Part shown: positions 48,143-51,099 of the stretch, one piece after another
Numbering within the stretch: the first letter of the stretch is position 1
Layout: every line of letters starts with the position of its first letter
DNA from: Lingula anatina
Taxonomy: Eukaryota; Animalia; Brachiopoda
Direction: 5' to 3'
DNA length: 64,000 nucleotides
NCBI GenBank assembly: GCA_051362555.1
Contig: CM120641.1
Coordinates: 496,001 to 560,000 of the forward strand
Notes under the pieces: model-generated
The model's input: the letters and a program-made list of their open reading frames with translations, nothing else
The model's database searches: none
Told to the model about the DNA's origin: nothing
Translations under genes and position numbers: made by a program

Positions 48143-51099
48143 TGTATTTTGGCATATCACATACTATATTATGCTTTCCAGTATTTCTAGACCAGCATGA
48201 TGCTAGAACTTTCCTGCATGCACATGCGCGTTCTAAGCGTGCGAACACGGGCTGGCTGGGTACGGAGGAGGTGCTGGCAGGGAACCTGGAGCGCGAGTGC
48301 GTAGAGGAAGTGTGTTCTTGGGAGGAAGCAAATGAAGTCTTTGAGAATGGAGAGAGAACCGTAAGGAGAAGCAGAATTGAGCAAGATGTCCTGATGCAGC
48401 TTATTGCATTTATTAAATTACTATACTATGTTATTTATAATTCGTATTATTTTTCAAGTTAATGGACTTTGGCCCTTTTTTTTTTAAATGAATAGAATAT
48501 GCACTTTAAAGTATTTAGATGAAGATATAAATGAATGTTTTTCCTTCTTTGCTTGCTAGTTTTATTGAACCATTTAACCAATAAACTATGAATTAAACCT
48601 CTTGTATGGACCCATGAGTACAATTCTATACCTTCTGTGTGTATTTATATATGATTAATGAACTTCAAACATGACATGTTTAAAACATTATGGCTATATA
48701 CTAGTAATGAATCTCAAAATCTGATATATCTTGGTACTAAAATTAACCCCCAGTGACTTATCTTTTACCCTATAACTATTTGTACATGTACCAGCTTTTA
48801 TGTTCATATCCTGTCACTGTTTCACAGTTGGTGTGATATTTACCATAAATATCTATTTCAGAGAGAGTACTGGGTAAGGAGAAATGGTATGTAATTTGTT
48901 TTAAATTATTCTTTAATTGGAAATATATTTTTATATGTAATGGAAAAATATAATTTAATTTGGCAATTGTCTGACATTTGACTTTGTTCCATGTTGTGAC
49001 ATATATACATTACGAAATCAGCTGTGATAATTTTTTAAAGATTGGTCCATTTTTATGCCAGATCCTAACCAGTGTGATTCCAACCCGTGTGTCTCAGAGG
49101 GGACCAGCAGATGTGAAGATTTATTCCAAAACTATAGATGTCACTGCAGGCAAGGATACACTGGAAGCAATTGTCACATCAGTGAGTCAGAATGTCCACA
49201 TGCAACTCACATCAGCTGTCATATAGCAGTTTCAAGACATTTATGTACTTATATATAAAATTCCACAATATGGGCCTACCCTTAAGAGTTGAGTTGTTGT
49301 TTTTGTTTTATTAGGAGGAGAGAGGGTGGGGGAGATTATGTATATACTGAGTATTGCAGGAACTCACAAACCCAATCTGAAAAACATTTTTATCTGTTCT
49401 CAGATATAGATGACTGTGGGACAAATTGTCTAAATGGAGCTATATGCACTGTAGGTATACAACTGTATGATATCTTTATTAATCAGAGATTTTGACAACC
49501 CATTTAAAAACCTTATTTATGAAATTGCTTTGTTTATTGTATATGCTGCAAATTAAAAGATTGTGTTTAATATTGTCATTAATGGCATACAACTTTATGT
49601 ATGTCTGTATATTAAAAGCATATATATATATACATGTACAAATAAAACTGACTTTAAAAATGAAAAGAATTCTGCTCACAATCTTACTTTCCAGGACCTG
49701 ATCAATGACTATCACTGCACCTGTGCCCCAGGATTCCGAGGCACTAACTGTGAAATTAACATTAATGAGTGCCAGAGCAACCCTTGTCAAAATGGTGCCA
49801 CGTGTCAGGACGGAGCAAACCGTTGGAGCTGCCAGTGTGCTCCAGGATGGACAGGTTAGTGGTCGTTTTGAATTAGCTTTAATTTCAGACTGCTGCTGTT
49901 ATTTGTTTCAAATTGTTTCTAATATAGATTACATTTACCAAAAAGTGAGGGTATTAACTTGAAGACCCAGTTGGAAGCACAGGAAGCAAAGCTCAAGAAC
50001 GTAATTACACGTTATAATATTTCTCAGTCCCAGTTCATACTTATTAAACAAGTATACTTTTCTATCTGACCAACAGATGAATTCACAGTAACAGTTAATG
50101 GGACAGAAGTCTGTTAGCTAGTCAAATATTTGGGTAAATCCTACCTCCTCCTTCCCAAATTGGAGTAGGGTTGGGGAGCCAGCTTGCAGCATATCCTGGC
50201 CATATACTGGACCCTTAGAGAGGAACAAAATTTACCAAATCTTATCTAGATTACTTAATCTTATGATACATCAACATAGATATATTATATGACAGTGCAA
50301 AGGTATCATTTGAGTACCATCAAACTCTGTGCTTCTGATGACTGTATGCTATCTCAATGTAATTACTATGGTAGTGTGGTGAAAATTTAAGAATTTTGCT
50401 GGCTTTGAAAATTTTGTTAGCAGATGATTTTTCTGCTGAAGATTTTTTTTCACTTTGAAAAATTACCCAAAACTAAAAAAAGAGACTTGCTTATCAGCTT
50501 TAAAATTATTTTTATCAGGTGTATCCTGCCAGTTGGACATCAATGAATGTATGTCGGCACCTTGTCTGAATGGCGGAACATGTAACAATCTGCAGAACAT
50601 GTTTACCTGTGATTGTGTCCAGGGATTTGCAGGGAATGGATGTGAAATTAATGTGGATGATTGTTACCTTGATCATTGCCTGAATGGTATGGCAGTGTTT
50701 TTTAAGTATTGTTTGTCATTCAATATTCCTGAGGACGTTGATATTTATATATTTTTCAATCTCAAGATGTGTTATAATATTTTCCTGGATTTTTTTTCTT
50801 GTTTTAACAAACCACAGACCTTTGTTGGTTTATAAGCTTGGCTTTATAATTTTGCAAAAACACATTTCTTTTCAAGAAAAATTTCCTTATAATATAATCA
50901 GACAAATAAGTTCTTTATCATACTTTTTTCACAGGTGGTACTTGCATTGATTTAGTCAATGACTTCAGCTGTATCTGTCCAGCAGGATTCTCTGGTACGT
51001 CATGTGAAGTCAACGTTAATGAGTGTGAGAGTTCTCCCTGCCTGAACCAAGCTACCTGTATTGATGCTGACAATGGCTTCCTGTGTGAATGTTTACCTG
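29411..51099 (+). CDS. Multi-exon secreted or membrane protein: signal peptide, C2/MNNL-like, DSL, Gla (alternative exons), EGF repeats; 3' end outside the window
   Basis: Exons 29411-29467, 31742-31975, 34274-34565, [46487-46662 or 48182-48360], 48862-48886, 49062-49181, 49404-49450, 49695-49854, 50519-50686, 50935-51099 all have GT-AG ends and compatible phases. The join across 34566-46486 is inferred. Confidence 0.65.
30247..30447. mobile_element. Partial CAGTGGCG-family MITE copy
   Basis: Shares ccatttggtac.gtttagaactatgat and ttttcagaaatc with the 1318 copy; ends ccggcactg. Confidence 0.65.
31742..31975 (+). CDS. Exon with end of signal peptide and C2/MNNL-like region
   Basis: tcttctag acceptor, 78 stop-free codons ([15 protein letters not shown]...CKLDFTHWK), gtataa donor, phase 0-0; the G.GFVEI start and F..W end loosely resemble the N-terminal domain of Notch ligands. 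Confidence 0.65.
34274..34565 (+). CDS. DSL-domain exon
   Basis: ttttcag acceptor; [45 protein letters not shown] matches the six-cysteine DSL pattern; donor gttggt, phase 1. Confidence 0.88.
37122..37853. repeat. Dispersed ~100-bp direct repeat (about 37122-37222 and 37756-37853)
   Basis: aacattgaacaat...gatcaattgagga.aaatgtgacaagatgtttttactgcttttaccctgtat occurs twice. Confidence 0.8.
41844..42017. mobile_element. MITE with ~16-bp subterminal repeats (ccgaaggttca / tgaaccttcgg)
   Basis: GGGG...CCCC ends, inverted subterminal arrays, tttgatcc duplicated on both flanks; second copy at 61136-61293. Confidence 0.85.
43676..46133 (+). mobile_element. Helentron/HINE-like non-autonomous element carrying a satellite array
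   Basis: subTIRs attgtaccaccagc (43678) / gctggtggtacaat (46084), 5' hairpin, GTCC-like microsatellite, 3' stem-loop gaggcg-gtat-cgcctc, ctagtt end. Confidence 0.8.
44660..45940. repeat. ~145-bp tandem satellite, about 9 units
   Basis: aaaactggca recurs at 44674, 44820, 44965, 45095, 45239, 45385, 45530, 45674 and 45820; each unit has a tgaccttgaaattgacctttgacct-like core. Confidence 0.95.
46487..46662 (+). CDS. Propeptide + Gla domain exon A
   Basis: [59 protein letters not shown]; phase-1 acceptor (46486 or 46495), gtgagt donor phase 0. Confidence 0.88.
47743..48100. mobile_element. hAT-like MITE between the two Gla exons
   Basis: 11-bp TIRs cagacatgctg / cagcatgtctg, inserted in a (TG)n tract. 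Confidence 0.6.
48182..48360 (+). CDS. Propeptide + Gla domain exon B
   Basis: [60 protein letters not shown]; tttccag acceptor phase 1, gtaagg donor phase 0. Confidence 0.92.
48862..48886 (+). CDS. 25-nt aromatic-stack microexon (REYWVRRN)
   Basis: tatttcag acceptor, gtatgt donor, phase 0-1; links either Gla exon in frame to the first EGF exon. Confidence 0.85.
49062..49181 (+). CDS. EGF exon 1
   Basis: [44 protein letters not shown], phase 1-1. Confidence 0.92.
49404..49450 (+). CDS. EGF2 first half
   Basis: [16 protein letters not shown]; ttctcag acceptor, gtaggt donor. Confidence 0.88.
49695..49854 (+). CDS. EGF2 second half and EGF3
   Basis: [57 protein letters not shown]. Confidence 0.93.
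50519..50686 (+). CDS. EGF3 end, EGF4, EGF5 start
   Basis: [60 protein letters not shown]. Confidence 0.93.
50935..51099 (+). CDS. EGF5 end and incomplete EGF6
   Basis: [55 protein letters not shown]; tttcacag acceptor, gtaggt donor; sixth Cys missing, so the gene continues. Not in the ORF track. Confidence 0.92.

Follow-up and report, generated by a model that had tools for sequence, protein, structure and literature searches.

A vertebrate-type pro-Gla exon cassette in a predicted Jagged-like gene of the brachiopod Lingula anatina

Introduction

Does the exon cassette that encodes the propeptide, Gla domain, aromatic stack and first EGF domain of vertebrate coagulation factors occur in protostomes, and if so, in what kind of protein? 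The question is raised by a 64,000-nucleotide stretch of the genome of the brachiopod Lingula anatina (GenBank assembly GCA_051362555.1, contig CM120641.1, positions 496,001 to 560,000 of the forward strand; hereafter the window, with positions counted from its first nucleotide). A preliminary description of the window, made from the sequence alone, recognized a Gla module with the exon layout of factor IX at 48182–49181, and proposed that in a protostome host such a module would predate the protostome-deuterostome split. Domain-evolution work has traced the Gla domain of clotting proteins to tunicates (PMC9643190, section 13). In the fly no classical Gla protein is described, according to PMC12112360; the carboxylases of Drosophila and Conus are functional, and that of the fly recognizes human propeptides (PMC12112360). 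Papers given by PMC number are cited throughout from the portions of their text that were available.

Results

A complete pro-Gla, aromatic-stack and EGF cassette

The cassette runs from the second of two pro-Gla exons to the first EGF exon:

46487–46662, + strand: pro-Gla exon 1; 176 nucleotides, phase 1-0; propeptide, RHKR site and Gla domain
48182–48360, + strand: pro-Gla exon 2; 179 nucleotides, phase 1-0; propeptide, RSKR site and Gla domain; opens in the Val codon of VFL and ends ...FENGERT
48862–48886, + strand: aromatic-stack exon; 25 nucleotides, phase 0-1; encodes REYWVRRN (Trp at position 4) and supplies the first base of the following Asp codon
49062–49181, + strand: EGF1 exon; 120 nucleotides, phase 1-1; PF00008 match, 7-residue loop between Cys2 and Cys3 (C2-C3 loop); closes the cassette

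The coordinates, the phases (1-0, 0-1, 1-1), the 25-nucleotide aromatic exon and the FENGERT end were all recovered as first described, and AG/GT ends can be read from the sequence on pro-Gla exon 2, the aromatic exon and the EGF1 exon. The exons and their phases are thereby confirmed; their splicing is predicted.

Pro-Gla exons 2 and 1 match the Pfam Gla family PF00594 at 52.7 and 48.2 bits (cut-off 27), retain 12 of 12 and 11 of 12, respectively, of the Glu positions of the factor IX Gla sites, and keep the C-x5-C loop. The closest Protein Data Bank (PDB) match of pro-Gla exon 2 is the propeptide and Gla domain of factor IX (E = 3.4e-12), and the alignment stops at the same ERT. Both exons carry the F-x5-A-x3-L propeptide pattern and a dibasic site; the carboxylase-recognition consensus is Phe-16/Ala-10/Leu-6 followed by a dibasic site (PMC5578492). 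As the preliminary description had it, the linker from the Leu to the dibasic site is extended by 3 and 5 residues (8 and 10 residues in the window exons vs 5 in factor IX, factor X and protein S). The +3 spacing of pro-Gla exon 2 aligns without gaps to human TMG2.

Open 25-nucleotide AG..GT exons with Trp at position 4 arise about once per 14 kb by chance (the 64 kb hold 4 on the + and 5 on the − strand). One of them sits inside the 701-nucleotide gap where the reading frame requires such an exon, and leaving it out of the scripted exon joins gives a premature stop. The distance from ERE to the first EGF Cys is 36 in the window, in the nemertean homologue described below and in most factor IX/X-type rows of the alignment.

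Intron positions shared with factor IX/X-type loci

A scan of metagenome contigs, from 50 of the 64 parts of the collection, yielded 29 loci (designated by L numbers), 17 of which were examined for exon structure and 9 in detail. The protein of locus L009 shares 82% of its residues with grouper factor X, mudskipper factor IX is the nearest match of L002 and L007 (57–60%), and L005 is nearest to the nemertean protein. The claimed vertebrate layout held up in this comparison: all four window intron positions match those of the genomic loci closest to fish factors IX and X. A phase-1 acceptor lies in the codon directly before the propeptide Phe in L002, L003, L005, L009 and L011. Both window pro-Gla exons, and 8 of the 9 loci examined in detail, have a phase-0 donor 24 codons past the E of ERE(C), and a 25-nucleotide exon with Trp at position 4 follows the pro-Gla exon in 6 of 17 loci (L002, L003, L005, L007, L009, L019). 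The EGF acceptor is located 3 codons plus 2 nucleotides upstream of Cys1 (window and 3 of 4 loci) and the EGF donor 7 nucleotides past the last Cys (window and 4 of 4 loci), giving EGF1 exon boundaries equal to those of L002, L007 and L009. Human F9 agrees: coding lengths back-calculated from Table 3 of PMC8911121 (55/0.63, 436/2.66, 28/1.12, 221/1.94) are about 88, 164, 25 and 114 nucleotides, corresponding to phases 1, 0, 1 and 1. Since the cassette is bordered by phase-1 introns at both ends, it could be inserted, skipped in frame or moved as a unit.

The host is a protostome, as the proposal on the age of the cassette presupposed, and a receptor gene in the same window matches a Lingula protein at 362 of 362 residues (see below).

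A nemertean homologue and an upstream DSL exon

Among the best 150 of 1138 profile matches, we singled out an uncharacterized protein of the nemertean Tubulanus polymorphus (XP_074663092.1, LOC141915457; here P0030). It comprises, in order, a DSL domain, a pro-Gla segment, an 8-residue aromatic segment, 20 EGF stretches and a membrane helix (19-residue hydrophobic peak at 1418), with no trypsin domain. Its DSL domain scores 23.7 bits, just below the PF01414 cut-off of 24.2; a match to the Jagged juxtamembrane family PF23575 is weak and below the cut-off (E = 0.013), and a VWC-like match is sub-threshold. At the aromatic place P0030 has exactly 8 residues plus Asp, gapless against the window. 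Among its approximately 20 EGF domains, the one directly behind the Gla domain is the best match of window EGF1 (46%, gapless).

The preliminary description had overlooked the upstream DSL domain and hence the internal position of the propeptide, the lack of a direct in-frame join between the two pro-Gla exons, and the 7-residue loop of EGF1. Exons corresponding to the order in P0030 flank the cassette in the window:

30610–30651, + strand: candidate first coding exon, signal-peptide start; open, hydrophobic, in frame with the next exon; phase-0 donor of low score
31742–31975, + strand: exon of the N-terminal region, at the place of the Notch-ligand C2 (MNNL) domain; phase 0-0; open, canonical splice sites, weak alignment to the P0030 N-terminus
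34274–34565, + strand: exon ending in the DSL domain; phase 0-1; PF01414 at 26.6 bits (cut-off 24.2)
49404–49450, + strand: first half of EGF2; phase 1-0; from exon joins
49695–49854, + strand: second half of EGF2 and most of EGF3; phase 0-1; profile match and exon joins
50519–50686, + strand: end of EGF3, EGF4 and start of EGF5; phase 1-1; profile match and exon joins
50935–51099, + strand: rest of EGF5 and the greater part of EGF6; phase 1-1; profile match and exon joins; final exon identified in the window

The window DSL domain has all six cysteines. The 10 top PDB matches of its exon are all Jagged/Serrate or Delta proteins, and its top match within P0030 is the DSL domain. A single-sequence fold of the exon gave a mean pLDDT (predicted local distance difference test) of 43, and a word-seeded protein search with it matched none of 18 candidates. 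The MNNL/C2 profile had no match in the window exons (Pfam, E ≤ 10) or in P0030. The residues equivalent to Jagged1 Arg203 and Phe207, which belong to the Notch interface (PMC5538765), are Gln and Glu in the window (numbering anchored on the RPRDDFF motif), and Notch activation of the canonical kind by the predicted protein is doubtful.

Because the DSL exon ends in phase 1, it is compatible with joining either pro-Gla exon. The joined models DSL-Gla1-aromatic-EGFs and DSL-Gla2-aromatic-EGFs are both open and colinear with P0030 over about 430 residues at 40–41% identity; premature stops arise in the scripted joins when both pro-Gla exons, neither of them, or no 25-nucleotide exon is used. Counting from the start of the cassette, the window holds five complete EGF domains and part of a sixth, the later ones with introns inside the module, and tblastn with P0030 found nothing further 3' of 51099 in the window. 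P0030 differs in having a single Gla domain and a shorter N-terminal region, and the window holds nothing that corresponds to its C-terminal half. Judging from the shared order of DSL, pro-Gla, 8-residue aromatic segment, EGF with 7-residue loop and EGF array, P0030 is probably the orthologue of the Lingula gene. This gene does not encode a clotting protease; its product is likely Jagged-like, with the Gla module following a DSL domain.

Two pro-Gla exons and their use

The two pro-Gla exons are 55% identical, with 39, 37 and 20 of 56 first, second and third codon positions in common. Their intron flanks have lost their similarity (16 and 21 of 200 shuffles reach as high a score). As third positions are far more diverged than first and second ones and the flanks are unrelated, both exons look constrained. 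A direct join of exon 1 to exon 2 needs a frameshift, so the two are probably alternatives. A search for RNA pairing elements for exclusive splicing found only short AT-rich repeats. One further exon may bear on their use:

47111–47162, + strand: candidate alternative signal-peptide exon; strong phase-1 donor, in frame with pro-Gla exon 2

Mutually exclusive use of the two pro-Gla exons behind the DSL exon is a possibility that falls appreciably short of an even chance. Somewhat below even is the chance that pro-Gla exon 2 has its own signal exon, 47111–47162, and makes an N-terminal Gla-(EGF)n protein with the layout of factor IX exons 1–4, with the DSL exon joined only to pro-Gla exon 1; this agrees with a DSL-headed long form and differs on the role of exon 2. 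The candidate lies inside the 1.5-kb intron between the pro-Gla exons, has the top donor score of its set and is the only exon on the + strand of the 64 kb with an ATG, a hydrophobic stretch and a phase-1 donor, by thresholds set after seeing it. Sense-strand RNA depth in its bin is 0.49 (run X15), and N-terminal Gla-EGF transcripts occur in other invertebrate-looking records (L012, L017, L022, L029). T-rich intron sequence, however, reads as Phe, Leu and Ser by chance, and the − strand control gave one such exon at loose and none at strict thresholds. Pro-Gla exon 2 is also slightly nearer than exon 1 to the DSL-linked nemertean Gla domain (35 vs 30 identities). We consider it quite unlikely that pro-Gla exon 1 is a relic or terminal exon and that only exon 2 feeds the EGF array. 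Its weak acceptor (AAG, score −3.3), an in-frame stop two codons past its donor on read-through, and RNA depth at 47186–47690 in all four runs would fit such a role, but the exon keeps its frame, cysteines, dibasic site and 11 of 12 Glu despite third-position divergence (20 of 56).

Two further candidates were rejected. The sole candidate for a second 25-nucleotide exon between the pro-Gla exons scores −13. A join of both pro-Gla exons via 47081–47162 is open but would leave a 24-residue hydrophobic stretch between two Gla domains, and is very unlikely.

The EGF1 loop and phylogenetic trees

The C2-C3 loop of EGF1 has 7 residues in the window, P0030, L005, L012, L017, fish protein S and a lamprey LamG-type protein. 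It has 5 in 16 of 16 factor-type rows, in 4 other window EGF domains and in 17 of 19 other P0030 EGF domains. The sharing of the 7-residue loop by Gla-adjacent EGF domains suggests that EGF1 travels with Gla. Scores of window EGF1 against fish factor IX (46.2 bits) and protein S (40.4 bits) do not choose between the two.

Two trees address the Gla-domain phylogeny that the preliminary description had called for. Invertebrate-type rows were grouped at 88/90 in a Gla+EGF tree, with long-branch warnings and with two window rows that share their C-terminal part by construction. The Gla-only tree had 1 well-supported branch of 26, and the sisterhood of the window exons was without support. A word-seeded search with pro-Gla exon 2 matched 1 fish protein among 45 candidates. 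In the ESM Atlas all neighbours were chordate Gla clusters (0.91 with the exon, <0.9 with the DSL-Gla portion of P0030); they serve as leads only.

Pro-Gla exons unlike the named vertebrate proteins compared also occur in other animal contigs (L005:7059–12335, L006:3905–4075 and P0014); L005 has the full cassette with a 120-nucleotide EGF exon and 7-residue loop, as in the window. In plankton-type transcripts (P0039, L001, L012, L017, L020, L022, L023, L028, L029) Gla is fused to ZP, to tyrosine kinase or to EGF arrays, and in several of them the C-terminus of the Gla domain is strongly altered.

RNA and read-run data

RNA mapping covered 31700–47690, a region that ends before the exons at 48182–49181, in 4 of the 9 listed RNA runs, with 6–25% of each run read. 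In run X15, sense-strand depth was 0.72 in the bin of the 31742–31975 exon and 0.74 in that of the DSL exon. The interval 47186–47690 had low, mostly sense-strand depth (0.6–1.4) in all four runs. A repeat element at 43448–46133, with an approximately 145-bp tandem unit (44650–45940), had depth >1000, from other copies judging by many differences. A read-run search found 46400–51150 in DNA runs of one organism from 4 studies; no RNA run was among the matches listed.

Other features of the window

3032–4023: two reading frames that resemble a fragmented Tc1/mariner transposase
13202–14329, − strand: intronless FMRFamide-receptor-like G protein-coupled receptor, equal to a RefSeq Lingula anatina protein
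52390–52923, 55576–56109 and 62916–63512, − strand: three tandem exon copies of an EF-hand protein of about 178 residues, within repeats that are 84–94% identical

A second RefSeq record of the receptor (P0002) has a 45-residue internal duplication, probably an assembly error. The EF-hand copies lie on the opposite strand inside a would-be intron of the Gla gene, and the third differs in frame at its 5' end.

Discussion

We think it probable, from the predicted exons and their colinearity with P0030, that the Lingula gene carries a factor IX/X-type pro-Gla/25-nucleotide/EGF cassette behind a DSL exon and before an EGF array, and that it encodes a Jagged-like, predicted membrane-anchored, carboxylated and lipid-binding protein. 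A single pro-Gla exon at a time would link the DSL exon to the aromatic exon. Carboxylase binds the propeptide and furin removes it (PMC8911121, PMC5578492), and an uncleaved propeptide disrupts the Gla fold of factor IX (PMC8911121). In the Lingula protein, the carboxylase of the endoplasmic reticulum would dock at the internal F-x5-A-x3-L site, behind a folded domain, and convert 11–12 Glu. A furin cut at R-x-K-R/AN may then shed the DSL-bearing head and free the N-terminus needed by the Gla fold. The membrane-bound Gla-(EGF)n stalk left behind could bind Ca2+ and attach to phosphatidylserine of apposed or dying cells. Matrix Gla protein is a precedent for a non-terminal carboxylase site, and protein S and Gas6 bind phosphatidylserine.

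The cassette shares with vertebrate factors IX, X, VII and protein C the F/A/L propeptide spacing, the dibasic site, 11–12 of 12 Glu, the aromatic stack, the four intron positions and phases, the 25-nucleotide exon and the ERE-to-EGF distance of 36. It differs in the upstream DSL exon, at least five EGF domains vs two, two pro-Gla exons, a propeptide linker longer by 3 or 5 residues and an EGF1 loop of 7 vs 5, and no protease was seen. The propeptide is internal in P0030 and in the DSL-joined models; an N-terminal form is possible via 47111–47162. Like protein S and Gas6, the predicted protein is a non-protease Gla-EGF protein, with a 7-residue EGF1 loop gapless to fish protein S and the lamprey LamG-type protein; unlike them, it has no thrombin-sensitive loop between aromatic stack and EGF1, and no LamG domain was seen. 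With Jagged/Serrate and Delta it shares a candidate signal, the N-terminal region, DSL domain and long EGF array and, in P0030, a Cys-rich segment, the weak PF23575 match and the membrane helix; the Gla cassette and furin site right behind DSL and the loss of the Arg203/Phe207 equivalents set it apart. Under the domain rule of PMC5356439, which allows only MNNL, DSL, EGF, VWC and transmembrane parts, the Gla insertion makes the protein 'DSL-like'. The same paper asks of Jagged at least 16 EGF domains, VWC and a membrane helix; P0030 has 20 EGF stretches and the helix, and the window ends before this part of the gene. Ascidians, which are chordates, likewise have Gla on non-clotting proteins, and Gla-kinase and Gla-EGF transcripts occur in records L001, L012 and L017. 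In 2006 Kulman and colleagues reportedly noted a likeness between developmental regulators and some of the Ci-Gla proteins, one of which may be Jagged-like.

Several observations weigh against this interpretation of the gene. The DSL exon lies 12 kb from the Gla exons, its join to them rests on phase and one predicted nemertean gene model, and the gene end with the membrane helix lies outside the window. RNA depth on the DSL exon is near 0 in three runs and about 2 in the fourth, and no joint between window exons was among the 15 of 298 joints listed from the four RNA runs, where a G-run and an expressed repeat family dominate. No Lingula protein with either Gla exon was found in the word-seeded search or among the best 150 of 1138 profile matches, and the trees leave the origin of the module undecided. 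A 25-nucleotide Trp exon was not found in 11 of 17 loci, several of them short or of another type. The 24-codon donor is absent from L006/L008 and from the small-intron or transcript-like L010, L014, L015, L016, L025 and L026, which we take to be larvacean-like.

Two other explanations concern the protein as a whole. It could be a working Notch ligand in which Gla, in the uncleaved chain, is a lipid-sensing helper, much as the Jagged C2 domain couples membrane and Notch binding. Lipid binding does tune Notch ligands (PMC5538765), and the six DSL cysteines and the Jagged-like domain order of P0030 fit such a protein. We regard it as rather unlikely, given Gln and Glu at the Arg203/Phe207 equivalents, a Gla cassette in the place of ligand EGF1-2 and a Gla fold that is blocked by an uncleaved propeptide (PMC8911121). 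It is highly improbable that the cassette came from a chordate by transfer or assembly contamination, or that the intron match is convergent. The chordate clusters among the Atlas neighbours, and a single named protostome among 20 name-checked matches, would accord with a foreign source; against it stand the Gla-EGF stretch in same-organism DNA runs from 4 studies, a gene identical to a Lingula protein in the same window, the same protein in a second phylum, and the coincidence of four introns and the 25-nucleotide exon.

The proposal that the cassette predates the protostome-deuterostome split is thus supported by the protostome host, the intron match and the same module in a nemertean. The module likely arose before the split and was likely used in cell-surface proteins ahead of clotting, to be combined later with protease, kringle or LamG parts in vertebrates. 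Beyond this, we offer a tentative picture that is more probably wrong than right in its full extent: a Jagged-like surface protein of the bilaterian ancestor had an internal carboxylase site, and furin cleavage turned its tethered DSL head into a shed DSL fragment and left a vitamin K-dependent phosphatidylserine receptor; protein S, Gas6 and the clotting factors later took over the phase 1-1 cassette, while in Lingula two alternative Gla exons tune the system.

Gla domains, their exon layout and ascidian Gla proteins are known already, and the nemertean protein is in RefSeq as uncharacterized. No description of a protostome Gla-domain protein or DSL-Gla fusion was found among the literature matches listed, on the basis of the available portions of PMC5578492, PMC3141003, PMC12112360, PMC8911121, PMC12097292, PMC9669250, PMC3927609, PMC4595640, PMC8166818, PMC11788884, PMC5356439, PMC5538765 and PMC9643190, and of a term search without match in PMC13425148; subscription papers may bear on this novelty. 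The supplements of PMC5356439, PMC8166818 (in part), PMC13121700, PMC4595640 and PMC9643190 contain no such protein. The text of the Lingula genome paper does not mention Gla, and its supplement has Gla under human only. Should an ascidian Jagged-like Gla protein already be on record, what is new here would narrow to the occurrence in protostomes, the identity of the introns, the DSL head and the presence of two pro-Gla exons. Any part that the protein might play in the phosphate shell of Lingula is speculative.

The finding of an entire pro-Gla cassette, with introns placed as in vertebrates, in a brachiopod and of the same protein in a nemertean likely moves the module back to the bilaterian ancestor. 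The Lingula protein is a concrete, expressible candidate for a carboxylase substrate from before clotting existed, and vitamin K would thereby be linked to a Notch-ligand-like surface protein. If the ancestral Jagged-like Gla protein is real, its Lingula descendant would provide the first example of a canonical Gla-domain substrate for a carboxylase of protostomes.

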